Shown here piece after piece: positions 1,130-64,000 of a DNA stretch of 64,000 nt (position 1 is its first letter; each line of letters starts with the position of its first letter). Source of the DNA: Torpedo marmorata (lineage: Eukaryota); contig OZ360233.1 of NCBI GenBank assembly GCA_977017645.1, forward strand, positions 18,290,001-18,354,000, read 5' to 3'. Made by a program: the position numbers and the translations under genes. The notes under the pieces are model-generated. The model was not told the origin of the DNA, made no database searches, and worked only from the letters and a program-made list of their open reading frames with translations.

Positions 1130-1585
1130 TCCTCACCATCCAGTAGTTTGCTGATTCTATGGGCCGTTCTGCTTGGCGAGTCTCTGTCTGATTGGTCAGC
1201 GCGTGTCCCTCCCGGCTCAGCGCAATTCCTCGCATATCACACACTGCGTGTTTCATTCCAGGCACAAATGTGTAAATCTAGTGCCCCACGGACCGATGGA
1301 ACGGATGGCCGCAGGAAGTGTCACTGAGCTCCAGTTACCCGAAAAAGGTTACCGTATGTTTTTGGTACATTCAAATTCCCGTGGAATCTTGGATATATTT
1401 GGTTAAAATGTACAGCGCAGGAGATGATGTTCCGTGTCACGATTGTCCGGACAGGATAACGGGTTCCTTGGAGAAAAGGGGCAGGTAACCTCGATATCTC
1501 CAAAGCTATTAAAGCGGACATGGCCGTTTATGTGCGCGGTGCGGCTCACACTGTTTCTGGGATATTGCGGAGACGCACAAAAGCT
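1130..1585 (+). pseudogene. TCR V pseudogene
   Basis: Leader remnant lacks ATG and has a GC donor; frameshifted V exon; RSS CACACTG 1547-1553, 23 bp, ACAAAAGCT 1577-1585. Confidence 0.85.
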
Positions 1586-2005
1586 CATTCTGAGATGGGA
1601 AGTGGTTTGAGAGAAAATGGCATAAAGAAGACGGGAGAGCGTGTTAAGGCTTGCGAAAAGTTAAGCAGGTGAAAACGTGAGACAGAGTGAGGTAGAGCAA
1701 TAGAACGAAAGAAGGGGAGAGAGGGTGGAGTGAGTGAAAGGGAGGGAGGAGATACACAGATGGAAGGAAAAAGATGCGTTGAGTGTACAGATAGAGGGTG
1801 AAATTTGCGTGAAGGACGGGGAACTAGATACAGACTGTCTTATCAACTCCGTCTGATTGGTTCAATAATGGCGACTCGAACGAATCCTGTGTGAGGGAAA
1901 CACTCACATATCTGTCATTGACGTTGATTCGCTCATAACATCGCCCCACCCCTTGTATAGCGGTAACACAAAGAAATATTCGTTTTTGACCTTAATCCGC
2001 GTACC

Positions 2006-2051
2006 ATGTCCTCCCTGAGTTGTTTGCTGATTCTGTGGGCCGTTCTGACTG
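2006..2051 (+). other. Upstream (second) leader exon MSSLSCLLILWAVLT-G
   Basis: gtaccATG, 46 nt hydrophobic peptide, GTGAGT donor; no V exon of its own. Confidence 0.8.
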
Positions 2052-2392
2052 GTGAGTCTGTCTGATTGGTCAGCGACGTCTGTCCATCGTCCTTGCTCTT
2101 CGAGTCTCCCTCTTTAACTTAATTAAAGGTGGACAATTCCCCCAAGTCAAACCCTCTCCGTCACACGTTCTCCCACCGTTTACTCATTTACACACTCTCT
2201 GTTTACTGAACTTCCTCACGGTCGCTCTGTCGCTCTATCTCTATCTCTCGCTGTCTCGCTTCTCGCCGTTCTCGTGAAAGAGAACCGGCTCGTGTCTCCA
2301 ACAGAGTTTCTGCTGCTTCCGACGTGAGTTTGCGCTCTTCTATGGGGCGAGCATTTGTAAAATATTCTTCCTTCGAATTTAATCCGAGCATC

Positions 2393-2818
2393 ATGTTCCT
2401 CCTTAGTTGTTCGCTGATTCTATGGGCCGTTCTGCCTGGTGAGACTGATTGATCAACACGTGTCCCGCGGGGTCAGCGGCGTTTCGCGCCGTTCACACAT
2501 TCTGTCGTTTGTTCCAGGGGCGAGTGGGAACGATTCAGTGACCCAAGAACCGCTGGAATTGATTGTCAATGAAGGGCAGATCGTATCACTGAGCTGCAGT
2601 TACTCGATGAATCCCAATGCATATTTTTGGTACATTCAACGTCCTGGAGAATCTCCCAAATATTTGCTAACAATCTACAGGTCAGGAGATGTGGTTCCGT
2701 CTCCCGATTGTCCGGAGAGGATATCGGGTTCATTGGAGAAAAACAGCCAGACATTCCACCTCAATAACTCGAAAACCCTTGTGGAGGATTCTGCCGCGTA
2801 TCTCTGCGCCGTGAAGCT
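2393..2818 (+). CDS. TRAV: TCR alpha/delta-type V segment, open (leader 2393-2438, intron 2439-2517, V exon 2518-2818)
   Basis: MFLLSCSLILWAVLP-G | ASGNDSVTQ...SLSCSY...WYIQRPGESPK...EDSAAYLCAVK; GT-AG phase-1 intron; canonical Cys23/Trp41/Cys104. Confidence 0.85.
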
Positions 2819-2857
2819 CACACTGTTCCAGGGCGGTGTCAGATCCGCACAAAAACT
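2819..2857 (+). other. 23-RSS
   Basis: CACACTG + 23 bp + ACAAAAACT. Confidence 0.92.
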
Positions 2858-4261: not shown

Positions 4262-4514
4262 CATTCTGAGATGGGAAGTGGTTTGAGAGAAAACGTAAGA
4301 AAGAAGACGGGAGAACGCGATAAGAATTGCGAAACGTTAAGCAGGTGAAAGAGTGAGACAGAGTGAGCTTGTGGAATAGAACAAGAGAAGGGGAGAGATG
4401 GTGGAGTGAGTGAAAGCGAGGGAGGAGATACACAGAGGGAAGGAGGAAGACGCGGGTTAGTGTACAGATAGAGGGAGAAACTTGCGTGAAGGAAGGGGAA
4501 CGAGATGCAGACTT

Positions 4515-4557
4515 TCTTGGTCTGCAGTCAAATGATCTACCACTGAGCTATGCCCTC
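4515..4557 (-). pseudogene. 3'-truncated tRNA-Cys(GCA) retrocopy (5' half)
   Basis: Reverse complement GAGGGCATAGCTCAGTGGTAGATCATTTGACTGCAGACCAAGA resembles the 5' half of vertebrate tRNA-Cys; flanked by an ~18-bp duplication (4501-4518 / 4560-4577). Confidence 0.85.
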
Positions 4558-4741
4558 ATCGAGATACAGACGTTCTTAACAACTCGGTCTCATTTGTTCA
4601 ATAATGGACACACGAACCAATCCTGTGTGAGGGAAACACTCTCATATCTATCCCCAGGCGTTGGTACGCTATAACATCGCCCCACGCCTTGTTTTGCGGT
4701 AACACAAATAAATATTCGCGTTTTACCGTAATCCGCGTACC

Positions 4742-4787
4742 ATGTCCCTCCTGCGTTGTTTGCTGATTCTATGGGTTGTTCTGACTG
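4742..4787 (+). other. Upstream (second) leader exon MSLLRCLLILWVVLT-G
   Basis: ATG, 46 nt, GTGAGT donor. Confidence 0.8.
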
Positions 4788-5102
4788 GTGAGTCTGTCTG
4801 AGTGGTCATCGACTTCTGTCCATCGTCCTTTATCGACGTGTCTCCCTCTTTAACCTAATTAAAGTTCGGCGATTCCCCCAAGACTCACACTCCTTCGCTC
4901 ACCCTCTGTTTACTCATTTAAGATTTCACTTTGTGCTCACTTAACTCACTCGCGCGGTCTCTCCCGCACTCCCGCTCTCGCCCCTCGCCGCTCTCGTGCC
5001 AGGGAAACGACCAGAGGTTCTTCTGCTTCCGACGTGCGCTGGCGAACATATGTCGGGCGAGCATTTGTAAAATATCTTTCTTTCGCATTTAGGCCGGGCA
5101 CC

Positions 5103-5528
5103 ATGTTTCTCCTGAGTTTTTGGCTGATTCTATCGGCCATTCTGCCTGGTGAGACTCGTTGGTCAACACGTGACGTGCTGGATCAGCGCCGTTCCGCGCC
5201 ATTCACACATTCTGTGTTTTGTTCCAGGGGCGAGTGGGAACGATTCCGTGACCCAAACACCTCTGGAATTGAGCATCGACGGAGGGCAGATCGTATCACT
5301 GAGCTGCATTTACTCGATGAGTCCCTTCGCATATTTTTGGTACATTCAACGTCCTGGAGACTCTCCCAAATATATGCTGAAGATCTTCACGTCGGGAGAT
5401 GTGGCTCTGTCTCACGATTGTTCGGAGATGATATCGGCTTCCTTGGAGAAAAAGAGCCAGAGATTCCATCTCAAAATCTCCGAAACCCGCGAGGAGGATT
5501 CCGCCGTTTATCTCTGCGCCGTGGAGCT
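5103..5528 (+). CDS. TRAV: TCR alpha/delta-type V segment, open (leader 5103-5148, V exon 5228-5528)
   Basis: MFLLSFWLILSAILP-G | ASGNDSVTQTPLELSIDGGQIVSLSCIY...WYIQ...EDSAVYLCAVE. Confidence 0.85.
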
Positions 5529-5567
5529 CACACTGTTCCAGGGCGGTGGCGGATCCGCACAAAAACT
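5529..5567 (+). other. 23-RSS
   Basis: CACACTG + 23 bp + ACAAAAACT. Confidence 0.92.
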
Positions 5568-12083: not shown

Positions 12084-12874
12084 ATGTCCCTCCTGAGTTG
12101 TTTTCTGCTTCTATGGACCGTTCTGACTGGTGCGTCTGTCTGATTGGTCACCGACTTCTGACCATCTTCCTTGCTCTCCGTGTCTCCCACTTTAATCTAA
12201 TAAAAGTTCGGTGATACCCCAAGACTCACACTCGTTCTCTATCCCTCCGTTTACTCATTTACACTTTCATTCTGTGCTTACTGATCTCCCTCGCGCGATC
12301 TCTCCCGCACTCTCTCGCTCCTCGTCGCTCTCGTGCGAGGGAAACAACCCCTGTCTCCAAGAGAGGTTCTTCTGCTTCCGACGTGAGCTTGCGGCCTTTT
12401 ATCGGGCGAGTATTTGGAAAATATCGTTCTCCCGAATTTAAGCCGGGCATCATATTCCTCCTGAGTAGTTGGCTGATTCTATGGGCCGTTCTGCCTGGTG
12501 AGACTGATTGACAACTCATTTTGCGTGGATTCAGCGCCATCCAGCGCCGTTCACACATTCTGTGTTGTTCCAGGGGCGAGTGGGAACGATGCAGTGACCC
12601 AAAGACCGCCGGCACTGATAGTCGATGAAGGGCAGATCGTATCACTGATCTGCAGTTACTCGATGAGTGCCGAGGCATATTTCTGGTACATTCAACGTCC
12701 CGGAGAATCAACAAAATATTTGCTAAAAATTTACACGTCAGGAGATGTGGTTCAGTCTCACGATTTTCCGGAGAGGATATCGGGTTCCTTGGAGAAACAG
12801 AGCCAGAGATTCCACCTCAATATCTCAAAAACCTGTGAGGAGGATTCCGCCGTGTATCACTGCGCTGTGGTTTT
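12084..12874 (+). CDS. TRAV: TCR V segment with open V exon (12574-12874); proximal leader has ATG>ATA (12452), upstream leader 12084-12129 is intact
   Basis: ASGNDAVTQRPPALIVDEGQIVSLICSY...WYIQ...EDSAVYHCAVV; RSS CACTCTG 12875-12881 + 23 + ATAAAAACT 12905-12913 (weakened). Confidence 0.65.
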
Positions 12875-13195
12875 CACTCTGTTCCAGGGCGGTGGAGGAT
12901 CCGCATAAAAACTCACCTCGAGAATTTCCATCGCTCGCTGTGGCGAGGGGATGCACTCGGTGACGGGCAGCCAGTCCTGCCCGTCCGCTCAATGGAAGAG
13001 CCAAAACGACCTTCCTTGAGAGTCTGCTGAAAACGGCAACGCCGAGTTGCAGGAGATTTGTGCTCCTCTGAGCGTTTCTCTTTCTCGGCCTCCTCTGTGT
13101 CCGATTCCTTAGTTTGAGGTGGAAGGTAGGAAGTCAGGGAGAGAGAAGGAAATGTATAGCTGTTTCCAAGAATATTGTAGGAAAAGGGAAGGAGT

Positions 13196-20933: not shown

Positions 20934-21377
20934 ATGTACCCCCTGATTTGTTTGCTGACTCTTTCGGCCGTTCTGCCTGGTGAGTGTCTGTCTGGCTTGT
21001 GAGCGCGTGACCGCCCGGTTCAGTGATTCGTGTTTCGTTCTAGAGATGATTGGGGAAGATTCAGTAACTCATGGACAGCCGGAACGCATGGCAGAGGAAT
21101 TACAGACCGTGTCACTGAGTTGCAGTTACTTGATGAGTACCTTCGCACATTTTTGGTACATTCAATATCCTGGAGAACCTCTCAAATTTTACTGAAAATG
21201 TACAGCTGCGGCGATGTGGTTACGCCTCAAGATTGCGGAAGAAGATGTCGGGTTTCTTTGAGACAAAGAGCCAGAGGATTCTCTTGACAGTCTACGGGAC
21301 GCTTGAGTCGGAATCCGCCGTGTATATCTGCGTCGTGAAGCCCACTATTCCAGAGCGATGGCGGGTCCGTATAAAAC
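20934..21377 (+). pseudogene. TCR V pseudogene
   Basis: Intact leader MYPLICLLTLSAVLP-G, frameshifted V exon, degenerate RSS (CCCACTA); CTCF-like CCACCAGGGGGCG at 21397-21409. Confidence 0.8.
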
Positions 21378-22259: not shown

Positions 22260-22410
22260 GGGTTCCTCACCATCCAGTAGTTTGCTGATTCTTTGGGCCG
22301 TTCTGCTTGGCGAGTCTTTGTCTGATTGGTCAGCGCGTGTCCCTCCCGGCTCAGCGCAATTCCTCACATATCACACTGTTTCTGCGATATTGCGGAGACG
22401 CACAAAAGTT
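22260..22410 (+). pseudogene. V remnant: leader and partial intron fused directly to an RSS (V exon deleted)
   Basis: Paralogue of 1130-1585 lacking ~309 bp; CACACTG 22372-22378 + 23 + ACAAAAGTT 22402-22410. Confidence 0.85.
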
Positions 22411-22830
22411 CATTTTGAGATGGGAAGTGGTTTGAGAGAAAACGGCAGAAAGAAGACGGGAGAGCGTGTTAAGTATTGCGAAAAGTTAAGCAGGTGAAAA
22501 CGTGAGACAGAGTGAGGTAGATAAATAGAACGAAAGAAGGGGAGTGAGAGTGGATTCACTGAAAGGGAGGGAGGAGATACACAGCTGGAAGGAGAAAGAT
22601 GCGGGGTATGTACAGATAGAGGGTGCAATATGCGTGAACGACGGGGAATGATATGCAGACTGTCTTATCAACTCGTTCTGATTGGTTCACGAATGGCCAC
22701 ACGAACCAATCCTGTGTGAGGGAAACACTCACATATCTGTCCTTGCCGTTGGTTCGCTCATAATATCGCCCCACCCCTTGTATAGCGGTAACACAAAGTA
22801 ATATTCGATTTTGACCTTAAACCGCGTACC

Positions 22831-22876
22831 ATGTCCTCCCTGAGTTGTTTGCTGATTCTGTGGGCCGTTCTGACTG
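22831..22876 (+). other. Upstream (second) leader exon
   Basis: MSSLSCLLILWAVLT-G, GTGAGT donor. Confidence 0.8.
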
Positions 22877-23211
22877 GTGAGTCTGTCTGATTGGTCAGCG
22901 ACGTCTGTCCATCGTCCTTGCTCTACGAGTCTCCCTCTTTAACTTAATAAAAGGTATACGATTCCCCCGAGTCATACCCTCTCCGTCGCACGTTATCCCA
23001 CCGTTTACTCATTTACACACTCTCTGTTTAATGAACTTCCTCACGGTCGCTCTGTCGATCTATCTCTCTCTCTCTCGCTCCTCGCTGTTCTCGTGAGAGG
23101 GAAACGGCCCGTGTCTCCAACAAAGTGTCTGCTGCTGCCGACGTGAATTTGCGCTCTTCTATCGGGCGAACATTTGTAAAATATCCTTCCTTCGAATTTA
23201 ATCCACGCATC

Positions 23212-23637
23212 ATGTTCCTCCTTAGTTGTTCGCTGATTCTATGGGCCGTTCTGCCTGGTGAGACTGATTGATCAACACGAGTCCCGCTGGGTCAGCGGCG
23301 TTTCGCGCCGTTCACACATTCTGACTTTTGTTCCAGGGGCGAGTGGGAACGATTCGGTGACCCAAGAACCCCCGGAATTGATTGTCAATGAAGGACAGAT
23401 CGTATCACTGAGCTGCAGTTACTCGATGGTTCCCAATGCATATTTCTGGTACATTCAACGTCCTGGAGAATCTCCCAAATATTTGCTGAAAATCTATGCG
23501 TCAGGAGATGTGGTTCCGTCGCTCGATTGTCCGGAGAGGATAACGGGTTCATTGGAGAAAAAGAGCCAGACATTCCACCTCAATAACTCGAAAACCCTTG
23601 TGGAGGATTCTGCCGTGTATCTCTGCGCCGTGGAGCT
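23212..23637 (+). CDS. TRAV: TCR alpha/delta-type V segment, open (leader 23212-23257, V exon 23337-23637)
   Basis: ASGNDSVTQEPPELIVNEGQIVSLSCSY...WYIQ...EDSAVYLCAVE. Confidence 0.85.
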
Positions 23638-23676
23638 CACACTGTTCCAGGGCGGTGGCAGATCCGCACAAAAACT
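23638..23676 (+). other. 23-RSS
   Basis: CACACTG + 23 bp + ACAAAAACT. Confidence 0.92.
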
Positions 23677-56763: not shown

Positions 56764-57231
56764 ATGTCCCTCAAGAGGTACCTGCTGATTGTATGGGCCA
56801 TTCTGGCAGGTGAGTCTCTGTGTGATGAGACAGTGCGTCCCGCGGATTCAGCGCAATCCCGTGCCGCTCACACACTCCGTGTTTCATTCCAGGCACGAAT
56901 GGGGAGGAATCCGTGACCCAAGGACCGCCGGAAATGACGGCCGAGGAAAGACAGACCGTGCCACTGAGTTGTAGTTACTCGACGAGTCAAGCCGCATATT
57001 TTTGGTACCTTCAACATCTTGGAGAACCTCCCAAATATTTGCTGAAAATGTACAGCTCGGGAGAAGTGGTTCCGTCTCACGATTGTCCGGATCGGATGTC
57101 GGGTTCTTTGGAGAAAAAGAACCAGCGCCTTCATTTGACTATCTCAGGGGCTCTGTGAAGGTCTCCGCCACGTATTTCTGCGCCGTGCGGCCCACACTGT
57201 TCCTGGGCGATGACGGATCCGCACAAAAACT
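56764..57231 (+). pseudogene. TCR V pseudogene (paralogue of 19747)
   Basis: Intact leader; 1-bp deletion in FR3 gives TGA at 57156-57158; RSS 57193-57231 intact. Confidence 0.85.
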
Positions 57232-57907: not shown

Positions 57908-58352
57908 ATGTACCCCCTGATTTGTTTGCTGACTCTATCGGCCGTTCTGCCTGGTGAGTGTCTCTCTGGTTTATCAGCACGTGTCCGCCGGTTCAGCGAT
58001 TCGTGTTTCGTTCTCGAAATGATTGGGGAAGTTTATGTAACCTATGGACCGCCGGAACGCATGACAGAGGAATTACAGACCGTGTTACTGAGCTGCAGTT
58101 ACTTGATGAGTACCTCCGCACATTTTTGGTACATTCAATATCCTGGAGAACCTCCCAGATTTTGATGAAAATGTACAACTGCGGCGATGTGGTTACGCCT
58201 CAAGATTTCGGAAGAAGATGTCGGATTTCTTTGAGGCAAAGAGCCAGAGGGTCCACTTGACTGTCTACGGGACGCTTGAGTCGGACTCCGCCGTGTATAT
58301 CTGCGTCGTGAAGCCCACTATTCCAGAGCGATGGCGGGTCCGTATAAAACGA
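57908..58352 (+). pseudogene. TCR V pseudogene (paralogue of 20934)
   Basis: Frameshifts, acceptor AG lost, degenerate RSS; CTCF-like CCACCAGGGGGCG at 58370-58382. Confidence 0.8.
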
Positions 58353-59229: not shown

Positions 59230-59691
59230 GGCTTCCTCACCATCCAGTAGTTTGCTGATTCTATGGGCCGTTCTGCTTGGCGAGTCTCTGTTTGATTGGT
59301 CAGCGCGTGTCCCTCCCGGCTCAGCGCAATTCCTCGCATATCACACACTGCGTGTTTCATTCCAGGCACAAATGTGGAAATCTAGTGACCCACGGACCGA
59401 CGGAACGGATGGCCGCAGGAAGTGTCGCTGAGCTCTGGTTACCCGAAAAAGGCTACCGTATGTTTTTGGTTCATTCAAGTTCCCGTGGAGTATTGGATAT
59501 ATTTGGTGAAAATGTACAGCGCAGGAGATGAGGTTCCGTGTCACGATTGTCTGGACAGGATGACGGGTTCCTTGGAGAAAAGGGGCCGGATGCCTTAATA
59601 TCTCCGAAGCTCTTGAAGCGGACCTGGCCGTTTATGTCTGCGCGGTGCGGCTCACACTGTTCCTGGGATATTGCGGAGAGGCACAAAAGCT
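59230..59691 (+). pseudogene. TCR V pseudogene (paralogue of 1130)
   Basis: No leader ATG, frameshifts; RSS 59653-59691. Confidence 0.85.
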
Positions 59692-60111: not shown

Positions 60112-60157
60112 ATGTCCTCCCTGAGTTGTTTGCTGATTCTGTGGGCCGTTCTGACTG
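60112..60157 (+). other. Upstream (second) leader exon
   Basis: MSSLSCLLILWAVLT-G, GTGAGT donor. Confidence 0.8.
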
Positions 60158-60510
60158 GTGAGTCTGTCTGATTGGTCAGCGACGTCTGTCCATCGTCCTT
60201 GCTCTACGAGTCTCCCTCTTTAACTTAATTAAAGGTGGACAATTCCCCCAGGTCATACCCTCTCCGTCGCACGTTTCCCACCGTTTACTCATTTACACAC
60301 TCTCTGTTTACTGAACTTCCTCACATCGCTCTGTCGCTCTATTTCTGTCGCTCTATCTCTAACTCTCTCTCTCTCGCTCCTCGCCGTTCTCGTGAAAGAG
60401 AACCGGCTCGTGTCTCCAACAGAGTTTCTGCTGCTTCCGACGTGAGTTTGCGCTCTTCTATCGGGCGAGCATTTGTAAAATATTCTTCCTTCGAATTTAA
60501 TCCGGGCATC

Positions 60511-60936
60511 ATGTTCCTCCTTTGCCCTTCGCTGATTCTATGGGCCGTTCTGCCTGGTGAGACTGATTGATCAACACGTGTTCCGCGGGGTCAGCGGCGT
60601 TTCGCGCCGTTCACACATTCTGTCTTTTGTTCCAGGGGCGAGTGGGAACGATTCAGTGACCCAAGAACCGCCGGAATTGATTGTCAATGAAGGGCAGATC
60701 GTATCACTGAGCTGCAGTTACTCGATGAATCCCAATGCATATTTTTGGTACATTCAACGTCCTGGAGAATCTCCCAAATATTTGCTAAAAATCTACACGT
60801 CAGGAGATGTGGTTCCGTCTCCCGATTGTCCGGAGAGGATATCGGGTTCATTGGAGAAAAAGAGCCAGAGATCCCACCTCAATAACTCGAAAACCCGTGT
60901 GGAGGATTCTGCCGTGTATCTCTGCGCCATGAAGCT
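60511..60936 (+). CDS. TRAV: TCR alpha/delta-type V segment, open (leader 60511-60556, V exon 60636-60936)
   Basis: ASGNDSVTQEPPELIVNEGQIVSLSCSYSMNPNAYFWYIQ...EDSAVYLCAMK; RSS 60937-60975 CACACTG/23/ACAAAAACT. Confidence 0.85.
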
Positions 60937-61914
60937 CACACTGTTCCAGGGCGGTGTCAGACCCGCACAAAAACTCACCTCGAGACATTGAATCGGACCC
61001 TATGGCTAGGGGGCGCTCTCGGCCACGCAATGGAAGCGAATACACGACCTTCCTGTAGATTCTGCTGCAACGCCGAGTTACAGGAGATTTTCTCTCCTCT
61101 GAGCGTTTCTCTTTCTCTGCGTCCCCTGTGTCTCATTCCGTAATTTGAGGTGGACGGTAGGAAGTCAGGGGGAGAGGAAGAAATGGATAGCTTTTTGACA
61201 GAATATTGTATGAAAATGAAGGAGTGTTTGTTAGATGGAAATTGAGAGGTTAAAAAAGCGGTAAACCGCGCGGGTAGGTGTGACCGGTAGGTGATCCTTC
61301 GGCCTCTCCTTCCCAAAATCAACAACAAGCTCATTGGTCCTGGTGAAAATAAGAACATAATTGTTGTTCTCGAACCACCAAACCAGGTTCATGATCTCCA
61401 TTCTGCATTCTGACTCATCTTTTCCAGTTATTTGGCCAACACTGGTGGTGTCTTCAGCTAATTTGTCGGTTGAGCTGGGGCTGAACTTGGCTGAACGGTC
61501 AATTGGTGCACATGGCAGAGATTGAAGGGAGGGAGAGATTGGCACTGCTCTCGTAAGATTAAATAAGTGTAAGACGGAGTCGCGTCGAGGCAGGAAGCTT
61601 AACAGAACGCGAGAAGGGGCGGGAGGGTGCAGGAGAACAAGTGAAAGTGATGACAGGGTGGAGCGAGAGTGAAGAAGAGGGAGACGTGGGAATGTAAATA
61701 TAGGCGGAGAAACACGTGCGAAAAAGAGCGAGAATTAGAAATGGTCAACATTAACAACCAGTTTTCGTTGGTCCAACAACGGCTTCTTATTGCGCCCATG
61801 TGCGAGGAGGGCGCCCTTCTCTCTGACCTAGACGATGGGCTGCTACTGACGAGACCCCATGTCTAATATCGGGGCATAAATGTTGAAATGTTCGTCTGGT
61901 CATCTTCATCCCGG

Positions 61915-62387: not shown

Positions 62388-62640
62388 CATTCTGAGATGG
62401 GAAGTGGTTTGAGAGAAAACGTAAGAAAGAAGACGGAAGAACGCGATAAGAATTGCGAAACGTTAAGCAGGTGAAAGAGTGAGACAGAATGAGCTTGTGG
62501 AATAGAACAAGAGAAGGGGAGAGATGGTGGAGTGAGTGAAAGGGAGGGAGGAGATACACAGAGGGAAGGAGGAAGACGCGGGTTAGTGTACAGATAGAGG
62601 GAGAAACTTGCGTGAAGGAAGGGGAACGAGATGCAGACTT

Positions 62641-62683
62641 TCTTGGTCTGCAGTCAAATGGTCTACCACTGAGCTATGCCCTC
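62641..62683 (-). pseudogene. tRNA-Cys 5'-half retrocopy (duplicate of 4515-4557)
   Basis: Same sequence and flanking duplication. Confidence 0.85.
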
Positions 62684-62867
62684 ATCGAGATACAGACGTT
62701 CTTAACAACTCGGTCTCATTGGTTCAATAATGGACACACGAACCAATCCTGTGTGAGGGAAACACTCTCATATCTATCCCCAGGCGTTGGTACGCTATAA
62801 CATCGCCCCACGCCTTGTTTTGCGGTAACACAAATAAATATTCGCGTTTTACCGTAATCCGCGTACC

Positions 62868-62913
62868 ATGTCCCTCCTGCGTTGTTTGCTGATTCTATGG
62901 GTCGTTCTGACTG
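62868..62913 (+). other. Upstream (second) leader exon
   Basis: MSLLRCLLILWVVLT-G, GTGAGT donor. Confidence 0.8.
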
Positions 62914-63239
62914 GTGAGTCTGTCTGAGTGGTCATCGACTTCTGTCCATCGTCCTTTATCGACGTGTCTCCCTCTTTAACCTAATTAAAGTTCGGCGATT
63001 CCCCCAAGACTCACACTCCTTCGCTCACCCTCTGTTTACTCATTTAAGATTTCACTCTGTGCTCACTTAACTCACTCGCGCTGTCTCTCCCGCACTCCCG
63101 CTCTCGCCCCTCGCCGCTCTCGTGCGAGGGAAACGACCCCAGCCTCCAACAGAGGTTCTTCTGCTTCCGACGTGCGCTGGCGAACATATATCGGCGAGCA
63201 TTTGTAAAATATCTTTCTTTCGCATTTAGGCCGGGCACC

Positions 63240-63665
63240 ATGTTTCTCCTGAGTTGTTGGCTGATTCTATCGGCCATTCTGCCTGGTGAGACCCGTTGGT
63301 CAACACGTGACGTGCTGGATCAGCGCCATTCCGCGCCATTCACACATTCTGTGTTTTGTTCCAGGGGCGACTGGGAACGATTCAGTGACCCAAACACCTC
63401 TGGAATTGAGCATCGACGGAGAGCAGATCGTATCACTGAGCTGCATTTACTCGATGAGTCCCTTCGCATATTTTTGGTACATTCAACGTCCTGGAGACTC
63501 TCCCAAATATATGCTGAAGATCTTCACGTCGGGAGATGTGTCTCTGTCTCACGATTGTTCGGAGATGATATCGGCTTCCTTGGAGAAAAAGAGCCAGAGA
63601 TTCCATCTCAAAATCTCAGAAACCCGCGAGGAGGATTCCGCCGTTTATCTCTGCGCCGTGGAGCT
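63240..63665 (+). CDS. TRAV: TCR alpha/delta-type V segment, open (leader 63240-63285, V exon 63365-63665)
   Basis: ATGNDSVTQTPLELSIDGEQIVSLSCIY...EDSAVYLCAVE; RSS 63666-63704 CACACTG/23/ACAAAAACT. Confidence 0.85.
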
Positions 63666-64000
63666 CACACTGTTCCAGGGCGGTGGCGGATCCGCACAAA
63701 AACTCACCTCGAGAATTTCCATCGCTCGCTGTGGCTAGGGGGCGCACTCGGGCACCGGCAGCCAGTTCTGTCGGTCAGCGCACTGGAAGCGTCAACACGA
63801 CCTTCCTGGAGAGTCTGCTGAAAACGGCAAAACCGAGTTGCAGGAGATTTGCCCTCCTCTGAGAGTTTCTCTTACTCTGCCTCCTCTGTGTCAGATTCCT
63901 TACTTTGAGGTGGAAGGTAGCAAGCCAGGGAAAGAGAAGGAGTGTTCTTGTGATGGAAATTGTGAGATTAATAAAGCGGTCTGTTTCGGACAGATGCGTG

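Follow-up and report, generated by a model that had tools for sequence, protein, structure and literature searches.

The window, a 64,000-nucleotide stretch of the Torpedo marmorata contig OZ360233.1, carries six V genes of one subfamily, marked by the V-exon motif GND[S/A]VTQ, and each of them has two leader exons in front of a single V exon: an upstream leader (U) and a proximal leader (Dn), both 46 nt long. We found the six pairs where the original prediction had placed them (2006/2393, 4742/5103, 12084/12452, 22831/23212, 60112/60511, and 62868/63240), at a measured spacing of 361 to 399 bp (predicted, ~360 to 400 bp). All six upstream leaders have the predicted ATG, hydrophobic 15-mer, and phase-1 GT donor, and all six V exons of these units are flanked by a CAG acceptor and a 23-spacer RSS.

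All six units lie on the plus strand. In the first (A group), the U promoter (1706..2005) contains a GA-rich stretch, ATTGG at 1856, CACCC at 1947, and AAATATT at ~1974, and it reads CGAAT at the CCAAT position (~1881). It is followed by the U leader exon (2006..2051; MSSLSCLLILWAVLT), which ends in CTG before a GTGAGT donor, and by an inter-leader segment (2052..2285) made up of ~30 nt that would be the intron start of a lost gene and then a ~200-nt pyrimidine-rich spacer; similarity to other leader introns stops near 2075-2085. Downstream lie a truncated Dn promoter (2286..2392; an AT-rich box and, at 2321, GACGT, but neither CCAAT nor ATTGG), the Dn leader exon (2393..2438; MFLLSCSLILWAVLP; CTG followed by a GTGAGA donor), the V exon (2518..2818; open frame, CAG acceptor), and the 23-spacer RSS (2819..2857), which runs from CACACTG to ACAAAAACT. 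The second unit (B group, 4742..5567) has its U leader at 4742-4787, Dn at 5103-5148, V exon at 5228-5528, and RSS at 5529-5567, and the third (DAVTQ group, 12084..12913) has them at 12084-12129, 12452-12497, 12574-12874, and 12875-12913. In this third unit, the U donor is GTGCGT, T stands at −3, the RSS is weaker, and the Dn at 12452 begins with ATA instead of ATG, a detail that had been missed before, so that its V frame is open, and the V exon translatable, only through U. The same four elements follow at 22831-22876, 23212-23257, 23337-23637, and 23638-23676 in the fourth unit (A group, 22831..23676), at 60112-60157, 60511-60556, 60636-60936, and 60937-60975 in the fifth (A group, 60112..60975), and at 62868-62913, 63240-63285, 63365-63665, and 63666-63704 in the sixth (B group, 62868..63704). 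The B group also shows a 59-nt insertion with tRNA-like wording 5′ of the U promoter (4510-4570 and 62640-62700), bordered by repeated GAGAT[A/G]CAGAC, which is probably a SINE fragment with its target duplication.

We read the contig without gaps from 18.0 to 18.864 Mb and drew 40 samples of 10 kb further along it (the genome measures 6.2 Gb). The first 464 kb read contained 55 V genes of the subfamily (37 in the A group, 8 in the B group, and 10 in the DAVTQ group), and both leaders were present in 55/55 of them (18.046-18.451 Mb), so that the pairing goes beyond chance. These genes are embedded in a tandemly amplified cassette together with single-leader V families, for which we coined the labels C, D, E, and F. 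A generic scan at 59 V matches between 18.46 and 18.86 Mb, many of them without any detected leader, found no second true leader. The two-leader copies differ from one another by 11% on average and by 19% at most (tree length 1.10), although 27 of the 1485 copy pairs are more than 99% alike and may not be independent. An assembly artefact was ruled out as the source of the arrangement, which is common to groups up to 19% apart. Separately, four blocks of ~25 to 35 kb at 18.208-18.303 Mb are 99% identical and repeat the first units of the window; they represent either a very recent segmental duplication or assembly redundancy.

The V exons have the conserved Cys, Trp, and Cys and the phase-1 split leader that a rearranging antigen-receptor V gene requires, and their RSS consists of a CAC heptamer, a 23-nt spacer, and an A-rich nonamer (CACACTG/ACAAAAACT in most copies, weaker in the DAVTQ group). 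Between 18.046 Mb and at least 20.79 Mb, every V exon lies on the plus strand, in an array of at least 2.7 Mb that holds several hundred of them (~200 V exons or fragments in the first 464 kb), with the two-leader subfamily at its far upstream end. Among solved structures, the matches of the first V exon include TCR alpha chains, ranked below several antibody constructs. The closest relatives with a name are gene models of skate and bamboo shark (nearest, Leucoraja erinacea XP_055487445.1, 47%); the gene models returned by a wide protein search reach 49% identity and say nothing about leader use, and protein searches at E 1e-15 gave no cDNA-derived relatives with their leaders. We found no J segments in 18.0-18.66 Mb or in the 40 samples of 10 kb from 20.0-21.27 Mb, and a PF09291 search gave no match over the cut-off. 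An RSS pattern search was swamped by a dispersed genomic repeat, hundreds of copies of which contain an RSS-like motif with a 12-nt spacer, close to consensus (358 matches, versus 30 with a control pattern). The array thus fits a cartilaginous-fish TRA/TRD V locus, a name that, with J and C not found, is drawn from the V features. Like conventional V genes of such loci, the units have a 46-nt phase-1 leader, a short intron, a V exon, and a 3′ 23-RSS in a one-strand tandem array; unlike these genes, which have one split leader, they carry a second complete promoter-leader block upstream.

The neighboring pseudogenes gave a mixed picture of how leaders fare in this array. The original prediction held that their leaders have decayed, which is true of the F type only: all 47 copies of the F leader lack both the ATG and the GT, whereas intact leaders at 20934-20979 and 57908-57953 precede dead E-type V exons and the intact leader at 56764 belongs to a C-type V whose frame ends early. 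In the 20 main E-type genes (18.07-18.45 Mb), the V exons are dead and the leaders intact, with 0 disabling events against 2.6 expected; one outlying row of the E set is a misassigned C-type pseudogene, and the counts were made with and without it. The E-type pseudogene leaders, with ATG and a GTGAGT donor, lie ~2 kb upstream of a two-leader V, and they could be neutral or could act as additional donors for the V that follows, in the manner of mouse TRBV12/13. The F-type V exon is precisely deleted between two CACACTG words in 7 copies (window 22264-22420; further copies, e.g., at contig 18224103 and 18386963). This deletion joins the CACACTG of the leader intron to the CACACTG of the RSS heptamer, leaving leader and RSS in place; the simple reading is a microhomology deletion, and a germline RAG hybrid joint would leave the same junction. 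We also observed that, although the dead F-type leader lacks an ATG, it evolves at roughly half the rate of its flanks, as do the initial 50 nt of the adjoining intron, which contain CTGATTGGTCAGC (e.g., window 1130-1230 and 59234-59340), possibly due to a DNA-level element spanning the leader and the intron start.

To which of these families U is related was apparent from a leader tree of 72 regions (up to 12 distinct regions per family, randomly drawn), in which U, Dn, C, D, E, and F each formed one group and U joined E and F (support 96/82). Identity of U is 0.64 to the E/F leaders and 0.56 to Dn. Because U and Dn are not sisters in this tree, in-place duplication of Dn was ruled out as the source of U, and since U groups with neighboring V families, it likely derives from a gene whose V exon was deleted. 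No V exon lies between U and Dn. The ~200-nt pyrimidine-rich spacer between them has a single origin: a genome-wide search gave 55 candidates, 40 of which were scored, all of them in this array. Part of the spacer resembles an inverted GA-rich distal promoter, in a match that is marginal against shuffles.

The U block aligns with the single-leader E, F, and D genes over about −320..+80 of the ATG, and with C only from about −200 to −235 on; its homology covers promoter, leader, and ~30 nt of intron. For Dn, homology to other V promoters begins only at about −110 (−90 to −128), i.e., its promoter is truncated. The simplest reading of the spacer, the kinship of U to E/F-type leaders, and this truncation would be that a single old deletion, possibly combined with an inversion, took out an E/F-like V exon along with the distal promoter of the next gene; V-exon deletions do occur in this array, as the F-type example at 22264-22420 shows. 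With copies 11% apart on average and up to 19%, over a tree length of 1.10, the two-leader unit is not a fresh orphan, which weakens the null explanation of a recently copied orphan leader that had been set against the original prediction. The U block does resemble the F-type orphan at window 22264: both consist of a promoter, a leader, and the start of an intron, lack a V exon of their own, and precede an intact V. In the F orphans, however, the ATG is missing and the donor is GC, whereas U has kept its ATG, frame, and GT in 55/55 copies.

The two promoters differ in their motifs. CCAAT or ATTGG at −200..−90 was present in 54/55 U, 37/37 C, 17/17 D, 40/47 F, and 4/26 E promoters and in 0/55 Dn promoters, and the CRE-like GACGT in 50/55 Dn, 34/37 C, and 4/55 U promoters. 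CRE sites matter for TCR V promoters. The CCAAT/ATTGG box was absent from 11 of the 12 leaders detected for other V families between 18.67 and 18.86 Mb and is hence not required of every V promoter here. Of the ATTGG/CACCC block that had been described before all six U leaders of the window, with CCAAT in most, the last part stands (CCAAT in 5/6), whereas ATTGG is present in only 5/6 and CACCC in only 4/6.

The lesions are distributed unequally over the two leaders. While U retained its ATG, open frame, and GT in every copy, Dn is intact in 46/55 and broken in 9/55 (seven with ATA and two with TAG); in addition, the last exon base of Dn is changed from G to T in five copies, one of them also a TAG copy. 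As a result of splicing in silico, the frame is open via U in 52/55 genes, via Dn in 44/55, and both ways in 44/55, with eight V genes open only via U and none only via Dn. The U donor is GTGAGT in 44/55 copies, and the Dn donor is never GTGAGT, being GTGAGA or weaker. The hydrophobic core of U exceeds that of Dn in 25 of 27 distinct pairs (means, 2.99 versus 2.45).

We counted disabling events, i.e., start, donor, stop, and frameshift changes, as column-wise steps on one tree. For U, 0 events were obtained versus 9.1 expected from the flanks (P = 1.1 × 10⁻⁴), where the expected counts come from parsimony over this one tree and are overstated if the copies undergo gene conversion; the deficit persisted at 0.55 of the flank rate, the slowdown of a dead leader (P = 0.0068). 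For Dn, 4 events versus 9.2 expected were obtained (P = 0.05; P = 0.43 at the slowed rate). These four events amount to just two distinct alleles, and 0 versus 4, compared directly, is not a significant difference (one-sided 0.06); the GT donor of Dn was lost in no copy. The dead F leader had 5 events versus 9.8 expected. Accordingly, U escaped disabling change beyond chance and is probably used, which suggests selection on it. Conservation of U relative to its flanks, the comparison that the original prediction had proposed, is indeed found (substitution rate 0.52 to 0.66 of the flanks) but is not diagnostic: The dead F leader is as slow (0.51 to 0.64), so slow change alone is no evidence of U function. 

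Intact yet dead E leaders, the slow F leader, and the orphan leaders that deletion generates in this array are what one would expect if U were a neutral orphan of a deleted V gene, with Dn working and the broken-Dn copies being pseudogenes. We regard this explanation as unlikely, since it has to account for 55 U copies without a single ATG or GT loss, stop, or frameshift over a tree length of 1.10 and a divergence of up to 19% (P = 0.007 even at the slowed rate), and for lesions that hit Dn, the leader without a distal promoter, and not U. In its favor, most Dn copies are intact and retain GACGT, and the pN/pS of U (1.36) reveals no amino-acid constraint, although with 15 codons this value is uninformative; the conventional C leader reaches 1.24, which marks the test as weak (Dn, 1.00; V exon, 0.76, p = 0.07; group-wise values are rough, as two B copies fell into the A group). 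Likewise, the RSS of the ATA copies is weaker, their U donor is GTGCGT, and 5/7 of them have T at −3 of the U ATG, so that they may be decaying as whole genes.

We favor, with a little better than even confidence and from sequence comparison, the reading that each of the 55 V genes was made two-leadered by one old rearrangement and that the captured U is the likely working first exon. This event would have placed the promoter and leader of one V gene in front of the V gene downstream of it. The captured U promoter would start transcription, and U would splice across ~450 nt to the V acceptor and supply the signal peptide. Cap-proximal consensus splice donors are favored, so that the U donor would be chosen over the Dn donor and a transcript started at U would mostly skip Dn. 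Dn would then be a fallback under relaxed constraint, and its intact copies may still contribute some transcripts. Whichever leader is used, the mature V domain would be identical, and only the promoter, the 5′ UTR, and the signal peptide would differ. A three-exon U-Dn-V product was ruled out, as there is no conserved in-frame acceptor before Dn (a candidate acceptor between U and Dn occurs in 17/55 copies, with an open frame in 2).

The idea of alternative first exons, as originally put forward, holds insofar as in-frame U-V splicing is possible in 52/55 genes, but the evidence leans toward a predicted primary U and a dispensable Dn rather than toward two equal promoters. A stronger version, in which U and Dn are both selected as regulated alternative first exons, by thymocyte stage or by alpha versus delta rearrangement, would make sense of the complementary motifs (CCAAT/ATTGG in nearly all U and no Dn, GACGT in most Dn and few U) and of the 44 copies open both ways. 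The Dn events that fall below the flank expectation and the never-lost Dn GT point the same way, but that deficit disappears at the slowed rate, as it does for the dead F leader; moreover, start-loss and stop alleles of Dn precede open V exons. We consider this version rather improbable. 

Upstream ATGs in good context lower translation from a downstream start. Very unlikely, therefore, is the proposal that what maintains the U block is its promoter and donor (germline transcription opening the V for RAG), with U a mere 19-codon uORF and protein made from the Dn ATG: Unspliced U is a 19-codon ORF in 55/55 copies, U lacks detectable amino-acid constraint, and the distal U promoter changes more slowly than its flanks (0.69, p = 0.004 by parsimony), but a tree-free count shows the last signal only weakly (0.80, P = 0.09), the interval from U to Dn has no conserved acceptor, and the upstream ATG was never lost although in good context it would depress Dn translation.

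A captured U as working first exon would have a counterpart in the mouse, where the splicing of the TRBV12-2 leader to TRBV13-2 is reportedly associated with Chou et al. (PNAS, 1987). In the accessible part of a recent preprint, the TRBV12-2 leader (L-PART1) is found on the TRBV13-2 V exon in 46,029 of 69,248 transcripts first called TRBV13-2, and such borrowing is nearly confined to TRBV12/13 (bioRxiv 10.64898/2026.01.30.702900). As this is the majority form of TRBV13-2, upstream-leader splicing is feasible and not new in kind. As in the mouse pair, the leader of a V gene lying upstream can be joined in frame to a V that has its own leader, by splicing that we infer here. Unlike mouse TRBV12-2, which keeps its own V exon, the donor V exon of U is gone; U is built into the gene less than 0.5 kb upstream, the Dn promoter is truncated, and the unit was amplified to 55 copies. 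The two-leader units would therefore work like TRBV12-2/TRBV13-2 borrowing and yet not be members of that system in the strict sense. What differs here is that the donor V is gone and that the arrangement is inherited in 55 genes.

A split leader is canonical for V genes, according to the accessible part of PMC12227049. The accessible parts of that article, PMC5931798, PMC6230588, PMC4574546, and PMC8517844 and of the PMC2189544 reference list do not describe two-leader V genes, and our literature search, for which most subscription papers lay outside, found no V subfamily described as having two leader exons, an absence that carries little weight. The nurse shark alpha cDNAs in the accessible part of PMC5931798 supplement 3 start at the V region, and a search of that file for three motifs of the V exon gave no match.

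Annotation treats a V gene as a single leader followed by a single V exon. If U works, at least eight genes that would otherwise be called pseudogenes are functional, and the subfamily would escape leader-primed repertoire PCR directed at the proximal exon. With Dn naturally broken in some of them, the 55 copies provide a test set for how V promoters control accessibility and usage, and for whether the oddity of mouse TRBV12/13 can become hard-wired. We add as a speculation, doubtful at present, that the subfamily may run on the captured promoter and leader with two differently wired promoters, CCAAT-type and CRE-type, through which one V could be opened for rearrangement or expressed in two T-cell contexts, and that the capture may rescue V genes with a dead leader of their own and may have favored the expansion of the subfamily. 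Overall, if U works, promoter capture would be one of the ways in which antigen-receptor arrays evolve by birth and death.
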